From a virus, in IMG/VR virus record IMGVR_UViG_3300028571_000830, positions 52,918-116,917 of that record: DNA of 64,000 nucleotides, one strand, 5' to 3'. The notes beneath the pieces are model-generated. The model ran no database searches. It was not told where the DNA came from and was given only the letters and a program-made list of their open reading frames with translations. Below are positions 5,294 to 55,600 of this stretch, in pieces. How positions within the stretch are numbered: the first letter of the stretch is position 1; every line of letters starts with the position of its first letter. Made by a program: the position numbers and the translations under genes.

Positions 5294-6268
5294 TTAGTTA
5301 TTTCTTCTTCCGAATCTATTAGTTCTATTAGGAAGTTCATACATATTAAACCTATTCAGATCATTTTTAATTCTTCTCTGTTTAGTCCAAGCATCTTGTT
5401 TCTTTATTTCAATATCAGCCATGATGAATGCCTCATCACAAAGTTGTTTATAATAAAGCATCTTTTGCTGTATCTGATTAAATGTTTCATCATTGATTTG
5501 GTTAGATAAAGTTTCAAAAACTTTATACTTAATAAATGCCTCAACAAATTCTCTAATACGATAGTTATCAGGAATCATTTGATTACCTCCACTATCATAT
5601 TCTGTAGCATACATAATTAAATGTACAATACCATTTCTAAAATTAGTTACAAACTTATTATCTCTAACATCAAATGAATCATAACTAGAAGATCCTGGAG
5701 TAAAGTTTCTATTATTAGTAGATGTATTTTCTGTAAGTGCCCAAGCATTTGTGTACTCTACACTACAGTTTTGTCTTGCAGAAATATTACCTGGTTTTAA
5801 TAAATATTGTCTTTGATAAGATCTTGGAGTAGAACTATTAGTCTTGTAAACAGCTTGAATAAGTTCAGGCATACAATTGCCATCGCACTCAGGATTACGA
5901 CATGATGGACTGTTACAAGGTGTACCTCCTATAGTTAAAGGAGCCACTTGAATAGTGGTGAGTGAAGCAGCTTGAGAATAAAATGAACTAGCATCTTGAT
6001 AAGGTCTCATAGAGATTTCAGCACACATCCAAGCTTCTCTAACAGCAAAAAAGTTATCTGGTAGTCTAGCTTCAAAATCTTCAATTACTAAAGCTTGTTC
6101 ACTTATAACATAAGTGGCTCTTCCTAGTTTTCTAAGACACTTATCAAGATAGGTGGGAAACATTAAGTCATCCACAGCACCTGTATCCATATATGACTTA
6201 AGTTCTTCTTTTACTATACTATATACAGGTTCAGGAGAAACAAAATTATATTTATAATAGTAACTCAT
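5294..6268 (-). CDS. Tail tubular/ring protein (P22 gp4-like; crAss R1)
   Basis: 324-aa ORF between the IHF-like gene and the muzzle gene; C-terminal GNQMIPDN...EFVEAFIKYK typical of crAss ring proteins. Confidence 0.65.
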   Translation of the reverse strand: MSYYYKYNFVSPEPVYSIVKEELKSYMDTGAVDDLMFPTYLDKCLRKLGRATYVISEQALVIEDFEARLPDNFFAVREAWMCAEISMRPYQDASSFYSQAASLTTIQVAPLTIGGTPCNSPSCRNPECDGNCMPELIQAVYKTNSSTPRSYQRQYLLKPGNISARQNCSVEYTNAWALTENTSTNNRNFTPGSSSYDSFDVRDNKFVTNFRNGIVHLIMYATEYDSGGNQMIPDNYRIREFVEAFIKYKVFETLSNQINDETFNQIQQKMLYYKQLCDEAFIMADIEIKKQDAWTKQRRIKNDLNRFNMYELPNRTNRFGRRNN

Positions 6269-22199: not shown

Positions 22200-22351
22200 C
22201 TTACTATTTTTTTAAATCTGTTAATTATTTTTTGAAGAAGAGTTTCTTTATATAAAAAGTTATATACATCTTTTGAACCATACTTCTGTTGAACTTCTCT
22301 ATCTAACATAGATGAATCATCTTCATTTAAAAAATCATCTATTATTGCCAT
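22190..22351 (-). CDS. 53-aa hypothetical protein between terL and portal
   Basis: MAIIDDFLNEDDSSMLDREVQQKYGSKDVYNFLYKETLLQKIINRFKKIVRWQ*; start overlaps the terL stop and stop overlaps the portal start. Confidence 0.45.
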   Translation of the reverse strand: MAIIDDFLNEDDSSMLDREVQQKYGSKDVYNFLYKETLLQKIINRFKKIVRWQ

Positions 22352-25300
22352 TATATAAAAAGTTTATTTTTTCGTTTAGGAAACATTCCTCTACTCTCTG
22401 TGAATAATCTATTTTTTTGTTTTGTGTTAAACATTGATTGAATTCTACCATCTCCTGCTGATCCAATTTTTCCCATAATAGGATCCATTTTCATAGCTAA
22501 TGCTACAGCTAACTCTGCAGCAATGATTCTATCAAAGTTACCCATCTCATTATATTGTATCATTTCTTCTAATAGAACAGGATCAAATATCTTCACCATA
22601 CCCTTTGTTTCAGAAATGATATTACCATCATCATCTTTCTCAACATGTAATACATCTTCTGTGTATTTCTTTAAACATCCATGCAGAAAACTTCTAATCT
22701 TATCAGCAGATCTATGTATACCATAATCACGTCTCACTGTTGTATTAGGTACTATTTCTTTTAACCAATCTGGTTGACGTTCTAAATAATGAGCATCTCC
22801 TTTAGCTATCATGTAATCTATAAAGGATATTTCATCGTTTTCACATAGAGCCCTTGCATTGTAATACTTAATAAGGAGTCTAGCTTGTTCTTCCCAGATT
22901 TCTTTTTTATCTGGTCTAGCTGTATAAGATGCTACAAACATATCTTGATACTTCTCACCAGATATAGCATGCATACGTTTATATATGTATACAGATCCTA
23001 ATGAACTAGAATATGCAGACTTACCTTGTCTATATGGATCCACTCCTGCAACATATAGTCCATAAGGAGGGGCTTCCATAGGAAACTCATATATAACTAC
23101 AGGAGCATCTTTATCATCTGAATTTTTTAAAGGAAAGTTAGATATAGGAAGTTTATCTGTAAACTCGTGTTTGATATTTCCATCATCACTAAATAATACA
23201 ACAGGTGTTCCTGTTCTTTCATTTTGTAATAGTCTGGTTTTTTGTCTTTTAGCAGCTTCTATATCAAATATATTTGTATCTTCATTCAAGAATATATCAT
23301 CCACTTCAATTGGATAATACATTTTTTCTTTTAGATAGGCCATTCTATCTCCTGCTTTCTTTAGTCTTTCTAAATTAGATGTAACAATTTCTGTAGCTTT
23401 TTCTTCATTAGAAACAAGCATAGTTACATTGTGTAAATCACTTTTAGCATCAGCATTTAAATACTCACCTAATGAAGAATCTTCTTTGGCTTCCATTCTA
23501 TATTTATTAGAAATGAATAAGCCATGTATTCTTGTTGAGTCTTTATCGTTATTGTATTCTAAGAAGTTGAAATTGTTTACATCAAACATTAAACTCTTGG
23601 CATCCATGAATTTCTTCATATCACCTCCTGTACCTGTAAGAATAGGACTACATCCCCAACCAAATGGTGTTGTAAATCCTGGAGTGGCAGCTTGTAGTCC
23701 TCTTAAGAAAGATCCTTTACCTATCTCATCAATGATGAGTTTTCTAGGTTTTGTACCTGCAATAGCTTCCTCATTGTTTCCCTCATCTAAGTTACGTATA
23801 ATGATTTGTGAGAAAGGGATTCTCTCTCCTCCTCTGGTCTTGATACCAAGTGTCACTTGATTCTTCCAGTTATCTTCAATTCTTTGCCATCTCCATGCTT
23901 CAGGGATGAAATTGAGTCCTTTATCTATCTTATCTGTAATAAGCTTTATATCTGGGGCATTCAGTCCAGCAATAATATTTTGTGAGTTCTCATCAAACGT
24001 AGCTCCCCAAGCAATATAAGAGCTTTCAATAACTGAGTTATGCGTCACAGTGTAATTTGTAGTTAAAAATAATTTATCTTCATTATCTACTGTTATACAC
24101 GTTGATTCTGCCAACTCATCTATTTCTATACTCTTTATAGTAGTCCAGTTAATCTTAAATTGTTTTCCTTTATTACCTATTTTAATATTATCTAATTTTC
24201 TCTGCAATCTAAATATTGGCTTTTCTGTAAAAATAGTAAATAACCAACCTGCACCACATTCTTTTCCATATAATTTAGGTGTAAATTCTTTTTTAGTTAA
24301 ATTAATTCCAAGACTTCTGCATAATGAATAAAAATCATCCGATAATCTTTTATCAGTTGTTGTAAAGGAAATAGTTCCATTAGAATAAACTGTACCATCA
24401 CTATCCATTAACCCTTGCAATAAAGACATTCTTTGTTCTTCGTTTCCTTCCAAGTAATTTAAAGGTATATGTTTATTTTTAAATAAACATAGTTCATTAA
24501 ACCAATTAGTTAATATATTGTATTTTAAAGTACCTCCTTTTATTCCTGAAGTAATAAAATACGTATCCGAATCCACTCTAACTTGTAAATCTAAATCAGT
24601 AGCGTATTTATAAATAAAAGCTACTGTTTGAGGATCTATAGTAGTTATACCTAAATTTCTAGAGTTACCGTCTCCTAACCATTGTCCTAAAAAATAAGGA
24701 TCTATTGTTTGTTCTTTTTTAGAGTAATGAATTACATCATTATTAGGAATAGCAAAAAAACACTCTTCTTTATTTCTTGTAACACCGTCTTTATACCCAT
24801 TATGTATTCTTGGTTTTTTATATATAGGTAATAAATCTTTTAAAGGAATGTCTTTTATTTTATTATATCTTTTATCTTTAACTCTCCATATATGATTCTC
24901 ACAACAATAGATTTCTCTATTATCTTGAAGGGTCATTTTATAAGTTTGAATTTTACCTTGATGATATACTCCTGTTATTGTAGCTAAGTTTCCTGTATGA
25001 TCAAATATTCTGTCACCTACACTAGCTTTTCCTATTTGTATATTTCCAGATTCTGTATATAATAATTCATCATTTCTTAAAGCTTTAGCTAAACGTCTAA
25101 TGCCTAGAATAACTAAGCCTTTCTTTTCATTTTGAGCTCTATCTATTTCATTAGTTATCACCCATTCATTATCTCTAAGAAGAGGATTGGCATATTTTTG
25201 TGATATTCTTCCCCTATCATCTATAATATCCACCTCTGTGTGCCATATATTTAAATGCCAATAGAGAAATGGGTTTATATAAACACCATCCATCATACAT

Positions 25301-25422
25301 CCATTCAGACATATTTCTTTATGAAATTCATAGAAAGCATTATACTCTTGACTAGTTTTATCAGGAAGTCTTTTCTGATTTATAAACCAGTCATTATAAT
25401 CAATGCTAATTAAATCTGTCAT
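22351..25422 (-). CDS. terL: Terminase large subunit with intein (about 674 aa after splicing)
   Basis: Walker A RRLAK|S, Walker B LIIDEIG, motif III TGTGG, RNase H-like nuclease YVAGVDPY and NFDRIIA. Confidence 0.92.
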   Translation of the reverse strand: MTDLISIDYNDWFINQKRLPDKTSQEYNAFYEFHKEICLNGCMMDGVYINPFLYWHLNIWHTEVDIIDDRGRISQKYANPLLRDNEWVITNEIDRAQNEKKGLVILGIRRLAKALRNDELLYTESGNIQIGKASVGDRIFDHTGNLATITGVYHQGKIQTYKMTLQDNREIYCCENHIWRVKDKRYNKIKDIPLKDLLPIYKKPRIHNGYKDGVTRNKEECFFAIPNNDVIHYSKKEQTIDPYFLGQWLGDGNSRNLGITTIDPQTVAFIYKYATDLDLQVRVDSDTYFITSGIKGGTLKYNILTNWFNELCLFKNKHIPLNYLEGNEEQRMSLLQGLMDSDGTVYSNGTISFTTTDKRLSDDFYSLCRSLGINLTKKEFTPKLYGKECGAGWLFTIFTEKPIFRLQRKLDNIKIGNKGKQFKINWTTIKSIEIDELAESTCITVDNEDKLFLTTNYTVTHNSVIESSYIAWGATFDENSQNIIAGLNAPDIKLITDKIDKGLNFIPEAWRWQRIEDNWKNQVTLGIKTRGGERIPFSQIIIRNLDEGNNEEAIAGTKPRKLIIDEIGKGSFLRGLQAATPGFTTPFGWGCSPILTGTGGDMKKFMDAKSLMFDVNNFNFLEYNNDKDSTRIHGLFISNKYRMEAKEDSSLGEYLNADAKSDLHNVTMLVSNEEKATEIVTSNLERLKKAGDRMAYLKEKMYYPIEVDDIFLNEDTNIFDIEAAKRQKTRLLQNERTGTPVVLFSDDGNIKHEFTDKLPISNFPLKNSDDKDAPVVIYEFPMEAPPYGLYVAGVDPYRQGKSAYSSSLGSVYIYKRMHAISGEKYQDMFVASYTARPDKKEIWEEQARLLIKYYNARALCENDEISFIDYMIAKGDAHYLERQPDWLKEIVPNTTVRRDYGIHRSADKIRSFLHGCLKKYTEDVLHVEKDDDGNIISETKGMVKIFDPVLLEEMIQYNEMGNFDRIIAAELAVALAMKMDPIMGKIGSAGDGRIQSMFNTKQKNRLFTESRGMFPKRKNKLFI
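24037..25083 (-). mobile_element. Intein with LAGLIDADG endonuclease, 349 aa (TerL residues 114-462), Ala1 class-3 type
   Basis: Starts ALRNDELL after the Walker A Lys; block B CENHIW; LAGLIDADG motifs YFLGQWLGDG and LLQGLMDSDG; ends STCITV...TVTHN|S. Confidence 0.9.
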
Positions 25423-28377: not shown

Positions 28378-28575
28378 ATGATAACAATAAGTGAACTTAT
28401 AGAATATGCATACAATAGATGTGCAATAGAAATAGATATTCTAATAGAAAAGAAACATTTAATACAAGAACAATTTAATAATGGATTGATTGATTATATG
28501 GATTATTCTTTTCTTATAGAAGATGTTCAGAATGATATAGATATTATATGTCCTATAGATATTAGTTTTATTTAA
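28378..28575 (+). CDS. Hypothetical protein
   Basis: 65-aa ORF. Confidence 0.5.
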   Translation: MITISELIEYAYNRCAIEIDILIEKKHLIQEQFNNGLIDYMDYSFLIEDVQNDIDIICPIDISFI

Positions 28576-28592
28576 ACCTCTTTATATATATT

Positions 28593-28817
28593 ATGGAAAC
28601 ACGTATTTTAGGTATTGTAGGGAACACTCTATATATACAAGGATTTTATGCTGGTGATTATTCTCATCAGCTTATTATTCCTAAACATGAATTAGATGCA
28701 TTTATAGATTCTGGAATTCCTGTATATGATAATATTAATTATATAGAATGTCAAGAACATGGAATGACATATGATCAATATATGGAATATTTAGAACAAT
28801 ATAATAAAGAATATTAA
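28593..28817 (+). CDS. Hypothetical protein
   Basis: 74-aa ORF. Confidence 0.55.
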   Translation: METRILGIVGNTLYIQGFYAGDYSHQLIIPKHELDAFIDSGIPVYDNINYIECQEHGMTYDQYMEYLEQYNKEY

Positions 28818-28822
28818 GTTAT

Positions 28823-29031
28823 TTCCTTTTGCACACACATCATTTAAGACTGATTAATTGACTATTATTATATCTGGATAATCCTTTGGGTAAAGATGTG
28901 ATATTGCCAGTCAGCGTTTTAATCAGTCTTCCAAGAATGAGACAGTTGTAATGAACAAGACCAAGTTGAGGTTAACGTGACCTTGTAAAAATCGCTTGTG
29001 AGGTTTGTTACAACTGAGTGTGTAAAGGGAA
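28823..29031 (+). ncRNA. Structured RNA motif, copy A
   Basis: 14-bp closing stem ttccttttgcacac/gtgtgtaaagggaa (2 G-U), 12-bp aagactgattaa/ttaatcagtctt, 9-bp cagttgtaa/ttacaactg; homologous to 30348-30545. Confidence 0.6.
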
Positions 29032-29115
29032 TTGTTGCATATTACATACATAACTATGGAGATATGTATTGTAGGGAACACATGCTTCTTATTATAATTA
29101 TCACCCAATATACAG

Positions 29116-29197
29116 TTATATAAAGTTGTAATGTGTGTAGAGAGAAGGATATTCCCTTAGTATTCTTTTATTCATGACACATTACAGCTTTATATAA
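29116..29197 (+). repeat. Long inverted repeat/hairpin (21-bp arms, one G-U)
   Basis: ttatataaagttgtaatgtgt ... acacattacagctttatataa. Confidence 0.75.
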
Positions 29198-29215
29198 AAT
29201 TAAAAAAACAAATCT

Positions 29216-29602
29216 ATGATTATATATAAATTTGCCTTATACACATTATTATTAAGTTATAATCCATGTGATGTATTCACTTATTATAATGTTACAGAAA
29301 TGCATGGATTAAATTTAAAAGATTGTCAAGCATATAATAATACATCTCAAGATGCTTATTTTGCTGGTTGGTCTAATTATATACCTAATTCTAAAGGGTA
29401 TAAAAAAGATGATGCAAAATTTGTATTTATTAATCTCAATAGATGTAATAGTGATGTTGAAACATTTGCTTTAGTAATGCACGAATTAATGCATCAATCA
29501 TTTGATATTCACAAGAATAAAATTAACAAAGAAGAAGAAATAATAACATGGGCAGAAAAAGAAGCACATTTAGTAATTAAAATAATAAATCTAAACAAAT
29601 GA
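29216..29602 (+). CDS. Putative zinc metallopeptidase (HExxH)
   Basis: VMHELMH followed by EEE; hydrophobic N-terminus. Confidence 0.55.
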   Translation: MIIYKFALYTLLLSYNPCDVFTYYNVTEMHGLNLKDCQAYNNTSQDAYFAGWSNYIPNSKGYKKDDAKFVFINLNRCNSDVETFALVMHELMHQSFDIHKNKINKEEEIITWAEKEAHLVIKIINLNK

Positions 29603-29919
29603 AAACAATAGAAATACAAATATTAGCACAAGATGTTAATAATGCAGGAAACTTTTTAGATAGTAATAATTGTATTTTAGCTACAGCTATTAAAAGACAA
29701 TTTAATGTAACAGCTGTTATTGAAGATATATTGTATTCATATATTATTAATGTTAGATATAATCATGATACATATGGTGTTAATCAATACGAAGAAGACA
29801 TCAGATTAGCAAGAGGTGTTCCTGATGATACATTAATTAGAACTATTAATTTACAACTATATAAGAAAGATGGCTGGATTAGAAAAGTAATTGATAAATT
29901 TAGGTCTTATTGGTACTAA
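29599..29919 (+). CDS. Hypothetical protein
   Basis: 106-aa ORF overlapping the previous stop. Confidence 0.55.
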   Translation: MKTIEIQILAQDVNNAGNFLDSNNCILATAIKRQFNVTAVIEDILYSYIINVRYNHDTYGVNQYEEDIRLARGVPDDTLIRTINLQLYKKDGWIRKVIDKFRSYWY

Positions 29920-30027
29920 TACACAAACCCACTGTATTAATTGTGATAAAATACACATAAAAGATAGTAAAGTTTGGTCAAAACATATCAGAACTAACAG
30001 AAATATTAAATCAAAAATCAAAACAAA

Positions 30028-30174
30028 ATGAAAAAACACAGAACTAAAACATTCTATCTACACTGTAAGACAGAGAGTAGATACCAATTGATTAAAGAAT
30101 ATTTAATGACTAAATACTCTGTATATACAGCAGTATTTGAGAATGGCTATGGTCATTTTAGAATAGTGTATTAA
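30028..30174 (+). CDS. 48-aa hypothetical protein
   Basis: MKKHRTKTFYLHCKTESRYQ...GYGHFRIVY*; A-rich leader. Confidence 0.4.
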   Translation: MKKHRTKTFYLHCKTESRYQLIKEYLMTKYSVYTAVFENGYGHFRIVY

Positions 30175-30347
30175 AGCATAGCCCAAATTTAACTGATTAT
30201 TAGGCTATAAACATTAGAATCAGTCCTTAGAGTGGTGGTTGATAGGAATATCATAAACTCTGTAATGCACCATTCTCATGTGGATATAAAGACTTCTTAG
30301 TACGATGTAGAGCAAGATAGTAGTTGCAGGCTAAGATGTGAAACCAC

Positions 30348-30545
30348 ACTGATTAAGTTTGAAAATAATACTACAGATTATGCATGTAGTTCTTAATCAG
30401 TCTCCCAAGGATGAGCAGTTGTAAAATGGAATAGCTGACCAGCTACGTGTGACAGCTCTGATATCTGACTCTTAACTGAGAGGATATTATTCAAGTGTCT
30501 ATTCACGCAATAACAAGTACTGGTACAACTTGAGTGCAGAGGGAA
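30348..30545 (+). ncRNA. Structured RNA motif, copy B (may extend 5' to about 30190)
   Basis: actgattaag/cttaatcagt stem, linker ctcccaaggatgagc, agttgta/tacaact stem, tail tgagtgcagagggaa. Confidence 0.6.
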
Positions 30546-30661
30546 AACATTAACCAATTAAACAAATGCATGCGTATTAACTATTCATGGTTTTTTTTAA
30601 TCAAACGTATGTGTTTGTTTTTTTGGTTATATTTACACACACAATTTAAACACAAAATATT

Positions 30662-30850
30662 ATGATTAATTTTTTATGGATGCTATATATAGCATTGATG
30701 TTGTTTGCTACAGTTTCGACAATTATTGATATTGTTGATGTAAGAGCATCTGATAATAAGTATATTTTTAATGATAAAGACTATTTTATACCTGGAATTG
30801 TTATCACTTGTCTATTATGGGCAAGTTTTATTGTTTATTATTTAAATTAA
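30662..30850 (+). CDS. Small membrane protein (2 predicted TM segments)
   Basis: Two hydrophobic stretches in 62 aa. Confidence 0.55.
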   Translation: MINFLWMLYIALMLFATVSTIIDIVDVRASDNKYIFNDKDYFIPGIVITCLLWASFIVYYLN

Positions 30851-30857
30851 AATCATT

Positions 30858-31079
30858 ATGAAAACATTATTATTGTTAGCAATATACATTGCTTCATTTG
30901 TTATTATTTTCTTTATTGTATCATTTCCTCCATGTATATTTGTTGGATCTTACAAAGCTGTTATTTATAATAGCACCTGGCAATTGATGTATTCATTCTT
31001 TATTGGATGGTGGATGGCATCATTTCCAGCAAGAGAGTATTATTTATTGCATAAAGAGTATTTTGATAAAATATTTTAA
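30858..31079 (+). CDS. Small membrane protein
   Basis: Hydrophobic 73-aa ORF. Confidence 0.55.
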   Translation: MKTLLLLAIYIASFVIIFFIVSFPPCIFVGSYKAVIYNSTWQLMYSFFIGWWMASFPAREYYLLHKEYFDKIF

Positions 31080-52608: not shown

Positions 52609-55600
52609 ATGATTTTAGAAAAACAAAAAGAAGCAAATATACTAGTGGATGGTATATCAAAAAGTTCAATTGGGATGTCATTAGACTTAGATTCTGCACA
52701 AATCTTGATGCAGATGTTAAGTAAGAATCTTTATTCAGATTCAATAGGTTCTACTATCAGAGAATGTGCAAGTAATGCATTAGATAGTCACAGAAGAGCT
52801 GGTGTTGACAAACCAATTGTTATTTCTTTTAAGAGAAATGATTCATCCAATTATGAATTCTCTGTTGAGGATTTTGGTATAGGACTAGATGCTGAAGATG
52901 TAGAAAACATCATTAGTAAGTATGGTAAGAGTACTAAACGAAATAGTAATACAGAACTGGGTATGATGGGTCAACAAAACTAGGCCCGCCACAAAAGTAA
53001 TTTTGTGGATAAACAATTGGATGAATTTTTGGAAATCTAAATTAAATTATTAACTTTGTAACCTAAACATAATATGCCATGGGTTATAAATACAAAGTTA
53101 ATCATGATTATTTCAATATAATTGACACAGAATACAAATCTTATATATTAGGATTTATATATGCAGATGGTTGTATATCACAACCTCCTGGTAATAGACA
53201 ATTGAACTTCAGAATTGGAGTTCAAGAAGAAGATGGATGGATTCTTACAAATTTATCTATACAGGCTGCAGGAGGACAAAAGTACATTGTGCAAACTCCT
53301 TCAAGTATTAAAAAGGGGTATAAACCTCAACACTGTGTTAATATAGCATCAAATCAAATAGGCAACTCTTTGATTAATTTAGGGTGTAACATCAATAAAA
53401 GTAAACTGGGAATGAATTTTCCTAAACTTGAAAAACATTTAATTCCTCATTTTATTAGAGGATTTTTAGATGGTGATGGAAGTATAATATTGAAAAAGTT
53501 ACAATATAAATATATTAGAAAAACTACTTATAAGTTACCTACTCCACATAAACAACAATATAAACTTATACTAGCTTTTTGCTCAACTGATAAAGAATTT
53601 TTATTAGAAATAGCAAAATGTTTAAATATAAGTAAACCTTATATAGCTGAAAAAGTTAGAAAACAGGTTAATTATATATTGTGGATAGAAAAAAAACAAG
53701 AAGTTTTAGATAGTGTAAATTATTTGTATAGTGATGCTACTTATTTTCTTAAAAGAAAGTATGATAAAGTAGTAGAATTTAACAAGACAATCAAAAGCGA
53801 AGCTACAGATACATCTGTAGAACGTTTAGAGACTACCTGAGCAATATAGTTTGCTTAATAACAGGAAGTAGTATGGATTAGTAATCATATGAAAAAGCGT
53901 CCAACCCCTATTTATAGGGTGATGATATAGTCCGACACTCTAGGAAACTAGAGATTAACAGAACCGCTAGGTTTTAAAGCCCCCCTTGCCTACAGTTCTA
54001 GTTTCTATTTTGTATGTAGAAAGAATGGAATGGAACGTAAGTACATGATGTATGAAGGAGAAGATGTAAACACAATTGATCTATTGTATGAAGTGGCTAC
54101 TGACATGGTTAATGGGGTGAAGATTATTATTCCTGTTAAATATTATGATAGAACAGCTTTTATTAATAAAAGTAGAGAACAGCTGGCTTATTTTGAGAAT
54201 GTGTATTTTGATTTTATGGATGAAGAAATCAAGAATGATTTTGTCATCTTTAGAGGAGAGCATTTTCAGTTCTCAGAACTGGCAGAGGATAATAGAATTC
54301 ATATATGTTTAGACAATGTTTATTATCCAATAGATTTTGAAAAGATTGGTATTAAAGATCCCTTACATTTTCCAATAGCTTTAAGAATTTCTCTCACTGA
54401 TGGGTTATATCCTACGCCTAATAGAGAAGCATTGAGATATACCCAGGAAGGTAAACAAATCATTCTTGATAAAATTAAACTTGTAGCAGATTATTTTGTA
54501 AATAAGTATAATGAGTCAAATGATGATGATGGTCTTCAAAGTATAATGGATTATTTATCTAGTAAAAATAGATATATGGTTTCTTTCAATAAGAAATATA
54601 ATCTTAATGAATTAGTACCATTTTCTAAAAGTGTTATCAAAACTCCAAAGATTAAAGGTGTTGAAAAACTAAATTTAGGAAACATTTGGACAAATAATAC
54701 TTATTGGTTAGGTGAGTATGATACGAAGATGAGAATTCAACATGGTAAATCAATGAGTCTTGATAATAGAAATTGTTATGAATGGGATCCAAAAGACTTG
54801 TGTAATATTAAAGTGTATTTTTATAGTGGTGCTAAACTACCAGGTATTAAAAAGGATTATATTAAATCTATAACATCTAAGGATAAATGTTTGATTGTAA
54901 GAAAGCATAAAACTTTTAAACTTGATCGTTATAGAAAAGATGGTGGATGGATTCTTAGTTATTACAAAATTCTTGATTTAGAAAATCATCCTGTAAGTGA
55001 ATGGCGACAATTGATTAAAGAATTCCAACATATCATCTCTTTATTAACTAAAGATTTTATTGATCTGGATAAATTAGTTATTCCTCAAACATTTATTGAT
55101 GCTAGGAAGAAAATTAAACCTCAAGTGTTTCTTGATAATGGTCAAGTTGCTAGTAGAAAGGTGAAACTTGTTGGTGAGATTGTGGGTAAGCAGGCTGTGA
55201 ATCTTTTAAGATATGTTGATGGAAAGAATTGTAAATGGGAGAGCACAACATATAAGCTTGAAAGTTTATACAAAACACCTCTATTAACTGTTTATGGGTT
55301 GGAAGGTGATATTGAAGTGATGGATAAGCTCTATCATATAATATCTGGTAAGTATATTAGATTTGTGTATTTTTCTAGTAGAGAAATTGAAAATGTGAAG
55401 AAGCTTAATTTACACAATTGGATGTCTTTTGATGAGTTTATGAAGGGTGAGAACAAAGTGTTTAAGAGAACTGTTACAGCTTATTTAATTAAAAAGCTTA
55501 GAGATGATAACAAAGCTACGTTTGATAGAATTGGTAGTTTAGAAAATGTTAATTTCTCATTTTATAAAAAACTCACTAGTATAGATTCTTACAGAAGTGA

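Follow-up and report, generated by a model that had tools for sequence, protein, structure and literature searches.

Twister ribozymes are self-cleaving RNAs whose definition is taken here from two reviews (PMC5408937, sections 8 and 11; PMC6154101, sections 2.1-2.2). As set out in those sections, stems P1, P2, and P4 are essential and P0, P3, and P5 optional; the scissile U-A step lies beside P1, and a conserved catalytic G follows P2. One tertiary contact, T1, joins L4 to L1 through three Watson-Crick pairs plus A-A, and a second, T2, joins L4 to a conserved GC in L2 (PMC5408937, PMC6154101). P2 consists of four Watson-Crick pairs (PMC5408937, section 11), P1 is phylogenetically conserved and dispensable for cleavage, as in the active "mini-twister" (PMC5408937), and P5 is present in 1% of known twisters (PMC6154101). 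Twisters have been proposed as processors of polycistronic mRNAs (PMC6765202), and the biological role of most bacterial and phage twisters is still described as open (PMC6765202, PMC5408937). In prophages, arrays of hammerhead ribozymes flank single genes; their transcripts of about 2 kb are cut in vitro, and the arrays have been proposed to trim long phage transcripts to gene-length RNAs (PMC3088659, Perreault et al. 2011). Here we describe a family of RNA elements with twister architecture in crAss-like phages, beginning with two copies, A and B, on the plus strand of a 64,000-nt stretch of virus record IMGVR_UViG_3300028571_000830 in IMG/VR (positions 52,918 to 116,917; hereafter the window, whose numbering is used throughout).

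The word order common to copies A and B had been pointed out in a first-pass annotation made from the letters alone, and it is indeed found at the coordinates given there, far beyond chance. A 23-nt core (TTAATCAGTCTYCCAAGRATGAG) occurs twice in the window (28919 and 30393), both times on the plus strand, has no further site in the whole 117-kb genome, and appears 0 times in 100 shuffles. Three pattern scans recover the same words in at least 120 IMG/VR contigs, a 17-nt head pattern alone yielding at least 120; the two copies are members of a large family and no new RNA class. The crAss capsid gene (Crass_capsid) is present in 16 of the 17 host records tested, and a record carries one to five copies, clustered within a few kb. 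Their intergenic position is directly established: family elements sit between small co-oriented open reading frames (ORFs), with the next co-oriented ATG ORF at a median of 100 nt; of 39 elements, 32 are crossed by no ORF of at least 40 amino acids (aa) on their own strand. In a set of prokaryote genomes representing 185,579 species by one genome apiece, an exact match to the 20-nt tail was recovered from two contigs only, both of metagenome-assembled genomes, one of which carries a full element at 100 bits. Neither the 2.4-kb region nor two minimal copies had a blastn match at E <= 10 among 50,697 GenBank phage records, and no cultured phage with the element can therefore be named.

The minimal element measures about 70-170 nt and has the consensus uuuU-AA-UGCAC-CAYAA-CUCAC-UUCCCAAGG-GUGAG-(CAGUUGUAAU ... 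AUUACAACUG)-A-GUGCA-GA-GGG-nnnn: in order, P1, the U-AA site, P2, P4 with its UUCCCAAGG loop, an optional P5 (in parentheses), GA, and GGG, which pairs with the loop as T1. In alignment A2, comprising 19 of 20 minimal copies (L052 was omitted as a near-duplicate of L053), 97.1% of cells are paired, compared with 32-54% when partners are slid, and nine pairs change on both sides. Alignment A5 comprises 73 matches (65 distinct) at E <= 1e-10 from the 72 new loci among the matches listed, chosen by the 5' head only; here 96.3% of cells are paired, compared with 27-50% when slid. Covariation among homologs, whose absence had been named in advance as counter-evidence to a structured RNA, is extensive, with 24 of 27 pairs changed on both sides in the 65 distinct sequences. 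Shuffled versions of A5 attain the observed value in 0 of 500 cases on any of five measures, although the slid control is the fairer of the two because kinship among sequences inflates shuffle statistics. The family, its fold, and its covariation are thus directly established.

The support extends to each helix of the fold. In A5, changes on both sides affect four of four pairs in P1 (80.1% of cells paired), three of five in P2 (100% paired), five of five in P4 (as also in A2), nine of ten in the long P5 hairpin, and all three pairs of the CCC/GGG pseudoknot T1 (100% paired; seen also in A2). T1 appears as CCA/UGG in 15 rows, CAC/GUG in seven, and UCC/GGA in one; within P2 it is pairs 3, 4, and 5 that covary, the fifth being CG in 56 rows, UA in eight, and UG in one. 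Because neither P1 nor T1 was in the covariance model, their pairing was not fitted to it. A cruder test of P1 on 38 elements gave a weak signal (3.42 contiguous pairs vs 3.01 +/- 0.17, shuffle maximum 3.5). An extension of the pseudoknot to five base pairs (UUCCC/GGGAA) was dropped, since in most members the AA that follows GGG forms part of P1. Unpaired positions are nearly invariant: outside the selecting pattern, the G after P2 and the A that follows are each kept in 64 of 65 rows, and the L4 letters UU, AA, and the terminal GG in 61-62 of 65 rows each; C and A after the P2 5' strand are likewise kept in 64 of 65 rows each. The base before the predicted cleavage site (N-1) is U in 63 rows and C in two, and the next two are AA in 64 of 65, in columns mostly inside the selecting pattern. 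Sequence conservation is far higher in the first ten pairs of P5 (CAGUUGUAAU/AUUACAACUG; in the window 30417-30423 / 30524-30530 and 28943-29016) than in P4 or P1.

This order of elements is that of twister type P1 (RF03160; Roth et al. 2014 as reviewed). As in twisters, U-AA precedes P2, G-A and then GGG follow it, L4 contains CCC-AA, and a big variable hairpin occupies the P5 position. Covariation is seen in P1, P2, P4, T1, and P5 alike, and some copies have a weak P1 or none, a trait they share with the active "mini-twister" described in PMC5408937. By the evidence of alignment and consensus, the family has the architecture of a twister self-cleaving ribozyme. The first-pass annotation was right to propose a ribozyme-type structured RNA on the plus strand with swappable peripheral hairpins. 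It could not match the motif to a known class, but such a match can be made: the architecture agrees feature by feature with the twister as described in PMC5408937 and PMC6154101. Nor are the supposed conserved unpaired junctions unpaired, CUYCCAAGR being L4 with its CCC in T1, AUGAG the P4 3' strand, and GAGUGC the P2 3' strand. We put a probability of roughly 0.65 on the reading that these elements form a plus-strand twister-type family specific to crAss-like phages, in which copy B would cut the early transcript and copy A would be a closed derivative, predicted not to cleave. Self-cleavage, its site, and a processing role are all predicted here from the likeness to twisters.

Copy B apparently retains every part of the element (Table 1). 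Its head, AAUGCACCAUUCUCAU at 30264, matches the family head, its site reads U30263 followed by A30264 and A30265, and model R1, run against its own genome, matches 30374-30550 at 30.4 bits (E 4e-5). Relatives place the true start at A30264, so that the extent first assigned to this copy began 84 nt too late. A conserved arm separates the P4 5' strand from L4, and its helix H3 is the stem first noticed in this copy (ACTGATTAA/TTAATCAGT). Alignment A4 of the arm (13 copies: 12 of 18 segments plus L015, added by hand) has 96.4% of cells paired, vs 24-45% when slid, and five pairs that change on both sides. It omits L011 and L024:11021, whose 5' module is divergent, L019, whose arm is 310 nt long, and the segments L024:7287, L031:4184, and window:25561, all three false. 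The arm, beside L4, has near-invariant letters in its internal loops and abuts the T1 strand of the predicted active site.

Table 1. Coordinates of the elements and associated hairpins in the window
Feature	Position	Strand	Details
Copy B, apparently complete twister-type element	30263..30545	+	N-1 U, L1/P2/L2 head, P4, L4 arm, L4, P5, P2 3' strand, GA + GGG
Predicted scissile bond, U30263 to A30264	30263..30264	+	By analogy with the twister U-A site (PMC5408937)
P2 5' strand UGCAC	30266..30270	+	Pairs with 30534-30538 (GUGCA)
P4 5' strand CUCAU	30275..30279	+	Pairs with 30411-30415 (AUGAG)
Arm inserted between P4 5' strand and L4	30280..30400	+	121 nt, two hairpins, conserved
Arm helices	H1 30280-83 / 30344-47; H2 30295-300 / 30331-36; H3 30349-57 / 30392-400	+	
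Loop L4, CUCCCAAGG	30402..30410	+	C30404-C30406 = T1 5' strand
P5 domain	30416..30532	+	Base AGUUGUA / UACAACU, one bulged U; interior lineage-specific
P2 3' strand and 3' end	30534..30545	+	GUGCA; G30539-A30540 (twister catalytic G position); G30541-G30543 (T1 3' strand); AA
Small hairpin ACUGAUU / AAUCAGU	30192..30224	+	Resembles arm H3; just upstream of copy B
Terminator-like hairpin	30560..30625	+	16-bp stem 30560-75 / 30605-20, then U run; 15 nt past copy B
Copy A, nested derivative	28823..29031	+	14-bp closing stem 28823-36 / 29018-31
Copy A parts	P4-like stem 28840-45 / 28935-40; H3-type hairpin 28846-28930; P5 domain 28943-29016	+	
Stand-alone hairpin	29116..29197	+	Inverted repeat I4, 21-nt arms, 95% complementary

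The two copies had been described as one duplicated motif of equal standing, but B appears intact and A is a derivative without the active-site bases. Copy A, matched by R1 at 28916-29036 with 26.5 bits, has no UAA site (UUUU precedes its P2), reads AA at the catalytic G-A position, and has CUUCC in place of UCCC in L4, keeping an L4 remnant (CUUCCAAGA) and the tail GUGUGUA-AA-GGGAA. Its 5' leader, UUCCUUUUGCACAC, pairs with the entire tail to make a nested three-way junction, and because the leader occupies the tail no strand is free for the pseudoknot. These differences between A and B are directly established, and they suggest that copy A is probably a dead derivative of such a ribozyme. 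Its 14-bp closing stem, proposed from the letters as favouring the plus strand, is present in the computed fold, and the wobble pairs U28827-G29027 and G28831-U29023 mean that it fits that strand only. Copy A folds strongly (-74.7 kcal/mol, z = -6.55). The differing loop contents had been described as themselves paired, but the second-stem interior of copy B folds no better than shuffles (z = -0.96).

Copy A is not alone in this form. A-type relatives occur at L035:4228-4358, without the hairpin insert, and at L024:11162-11388, with the full arm, and similar nested copies, classified by eye, in which the leader complements the conserved 3' strand occur in L045, L068, L070:4138, L071:3471 and 4365, and L037:3022. 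A single hybrid element in L001 (11198-11436, minus strand) joins the 5' half and arm of B to the P5 and 3' flank of A, with a canonical tail; A's P5 therefore once belonged to a canonical copy, and modules exchange by recombination in the conserved core. Of the two partial stems reported to recur outside the copies, both exist, and that at 29116-29197 is very stable (-35.7 kcal/mol, z = -9.2). Its base repeats the P5 word (AGUUGUAAU / AUUACAGCU), these being the only words kept; the hairpin is probably what is left of another copy. The small hairpin at 30192-30224 is absent in the relative L001, and the stretch that holds it (30185-30262) folds no better than shuffles (z = -0.77).

If intact copies behave like twisters and prophage hammerhead arrays (PMC3088659, PMC6765202), they would cut just 5' of themselves. 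Copy B would most likely cut the early polycistronic transcript between U30263 and A30264, separating the transcript of gene 30028-30174 from a downstream product that starts with a compact ribozyme fold. The upstream product would end in a 2',3'-cyclic phosphate, and in relatives L038, L049, L059, L062, and L072 this predicted 3' end comes right after a hairpin. The downstream product would carry a 5'-OH on the compact pseudoknotted fold, beginning in copy B with AAUGCACC. Copy A, having lost the U-A-A site, the catalytic G, and a free 3' GGG strand (now paired with the 5' leader), is expected to be inactive and may have been kept as a hairpin that stabilises the RNA or that host nucleases cut.

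Long intergenic hairpins processed by RNase III punctuate the early polycistronic RNA of phage T7. They offer a possible functional analogue of nested copy A and the 29116-29197 hairpin, purely by analogy; they need a host enzyme and have no sequence relation to the crAss-like elements. The prophage hammerhead arrays resemble the present family in placing several co-oriented motifs between small phage genes (PMC3088659), but they belong to another ribozyme class and to prophages of cultured bacteria, whereas the crAss-like genomes are of lytic type. A literature search returned no article linking twisters to crAss-like phages, and the literature matches listed held nothing relevant on ribozymes or structured RNA in these phages. 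With at least 120 crAss-like contigs holding the element in the same kind of setting, flanked by small early genes of one orientation, the family provides a natural system for testing what twisters do, and an apparently intact copy beside a closed-up one, as with B and A, makes a ready-made natural control.

Several observations weigh against a cleaving twister or set the family apart from the canonical class. P2 has five pairs compared with four in twisters; the L2 GC of T2 is replaced (C-A after P2, with L4 ending in GG), and T2 shows no covariation, a C-G contact being possible in columns that do not vary; L4 carries one extra U; and P5, dispensable in twisters, is universal here, with a base unusually conserved in sequence. 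About one third of family copies carry the conserved arm; it is at least about 110 nt long and lies inside L4, outside the optional P0, P3, and P5 positions of twisters. Copy B itself lacks P1 (0-1 pair; CUCUG vs AAAAC), and one U bulges where P5 meets P2. Its minimum free energy fold does not form the core, and as a whole it gives z = -0.29. In favour of the core, the twister-like nested fold with all helices enforced comes within 5.2 kcal/mol of that minimum, the energy of the pseudoknot being uncounted. Nested copies without the active site keep the same 3' strand, which, together with the conserved P5 base, suggests a constraint other than catalysis.

The Rfam results point in the same direction. 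RF03160, the twister-P1 model, whose gathering score is 67.2 bits, had 0 matches at E <= 10 across the phage's own genome and five records with minimal copies, and four cmscan runs at E <= 10 returned no twister, twister-sister, or other ribozyme model. At that threshold, region 28500-30900, five loci, and two minimal copies produced only chance rows of microRNA/small nucleolar RNA type; at gathering score, the whole window and 15 related loci produced nothing except three tRNAs in L035. The earlier expectation that the motif is unlisted in Rfam was thus borne out, the twister models included. Because Rfam models fail to score the copies, the family is filed here as a variant of the twister class that is no member by the Rfam criterion. 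If it belongs to that class, current Rfam models miss a whole phage lineage of it, and the sequence definition of twisters would broaden to take in a P2 of five pairs, a changed T2, a P5 present throughout, and an arm within L4.

The same departures sustain the alternative that survives best, doubtful as we consider it: a twister-like fold without catalysis, a structured module serving to shield the ends of transcripts or to bind a protein of phage or host, with the conserved 3' strand and P5 base as its functional surface. It would account for the silence of the Rfam twister models, for the altered T2 and P2 length, and for nested copies (L071:3471-3629, L045:1221-1431, and copy A of the window) that keep the P5 base and the 3' strand ACAACUGAGUGCAGAGGG without the UAA site or L4 loop; this conservation without an active site is the main ground for retaining it. 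It sits poorly, however, with near-invariant letters at exactly the twister active-site positions (A just 3' of the scissile bond, G-A following P2, and CCC-AA in L4), since a purely structural role needs no invariance of these unpaired bases, and with P1 and T1 that covary as they do in twisters.

A different and, in our estimate, unlikely proposal keeps catalysis and adds control. The L4 arm would be a sensor or docking domain, these elements would be naturally occurring allosteric twisters setting when the early transcript is broken up, and the nested copies would represent a second functional state. A phage or host factor would gate cleavage, and the 5' leader of nested copies would permanently sequester the active-site strand, with no decay involved. 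For the protein-sponge or aptamer role raised in the first-pass annotation we found nothing in support of either; for the extra arm, such a role may still apply.

Twister-sister, which we take to be RF02681, was rejected as the class: the elements have a covarying pseudoknot from L4 to the 3' strand (three of three pairs), and no Rfam match was obtained. The likeness lies in the letters of the P4 terminal loop and the multi-stem layout (Weinberg et al. 2015 as reviewed, PMC6154101), and section 2.2 of that review describes a class in which a loop-loop pseudoknot cannot form and the conserved core nucleotides are distinct. Hammerhead, hepatitis delta virus-like, pistol, and hatchet ribozymes were set aside on topology and Rfam silence, a group I intron fragment for want of an Rfam match, and a put-type antiterminator for want of evidence.

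That the conserved words act in DNA, as an iteron, a recombination site, or a phage-polymerase promoter, is very improbable. The elements do lie 1-3 kb from a strand switch and the GC-skew minimum, and they occur in several copies whose modules recombine, as in the L001 hybrid; but the compensatory changes include many G-U pairs workable on one strand only, the pseudoknot covaries, elements are always co-oriented with the flanking genes, and reverse-strand model matches are partial and weak (at most 28.8 bits vs up to 126.7). Least credible of all is a translated small ORF behind the shared words, a possibility named in advance as fatal to an RNA reading: mechanical ORFs overlap both copies (28998-29123 and 30534-30665 on the plus strand, 28923-29108 and 30393-30557 on the minus), but 1-nt indels inside the A/B core (GAGACAG vs GAGCAG; CAACTGAG vs CAACTTGAG), inserts of arbitrary length, and 20-300 nt of unrelated sequence between conserved blocks across the family tell against it.

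Further variety was seen among the related loci. Three copies stand head-to-tail within 600 nt of L017 (9875-10473, minus strand), and four copies, canonical and nested types mixed, occupy 3.2 kb of L071 (1297-4513). Otherwise canonical copies have the catalytic G altered (GCAAAGGG; L098:2722-2833 and L145:7682-7793) or missing (GCAAGGG; L037:3257-3370); from their letters these are likely natural inactive variants, and possible controls. In L001, L005, and L013 the 20-45 nt upstream of the head hold a small hairpin, UAAGCA...UGCUUA, that is conserved; in some lineages it comes directly before the predicted cleavage site, though not before copy B of the window, and it may be an optional P0. 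Between the element and the next start codon the A-rich words AAAACUUAA recur (for example in L043, L045, L042, L031, and L071:3900-3960) and may be a leader or promoter feature.

The window, part of a 117-kb crAss-like phage, contains Crass_capsid and P22-type portal genes. Its coding strand flips from minus to plus near 27.5 kb, coinciding with the GC-skew minimum, and copies A and B both occupy ORF-free gaps inside the plus-strand block of small genes that follows. The terminator-like hairpin past copy B folds at -19.5 kcal/mol (z = -4.36) and is absent from the output of a simple terminator scan. A sigma-70 promoter scan found no excess (41 vs 41.6 in shuffles), ARAGORN found no tRNA or tmRNA in the window, and a PHROGs search with ten flanking small ORFs gave nothing useful. 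Near copy A, a 19-nt repeat (95% identical) links 28609-28627 and 29063-29081, and the start of ORF 28593-28817 (ATGGAAACACG...GGTATTGTAGGGAACAC) reappears right after the copy as a short pseudo-start (ATGGAGATATGTATTGTAGGGAACAC); the repeat suggests a gene-start duplication linked to insertion of the RNA cassette. Farther off, residues 327-379 of a 1023-aa ORF at 22351-25422 on the minus strand contain Hom_end and LAGLIDADG_3 domains, which would fit an intein-type insertion. In the close relative L035, three tRNA genes (5575-5816; Rfam, 36.8-52.6 bits) come immediately after the B-like copy, a position taken in the window by the terminator-like hairpin and small ORFs.

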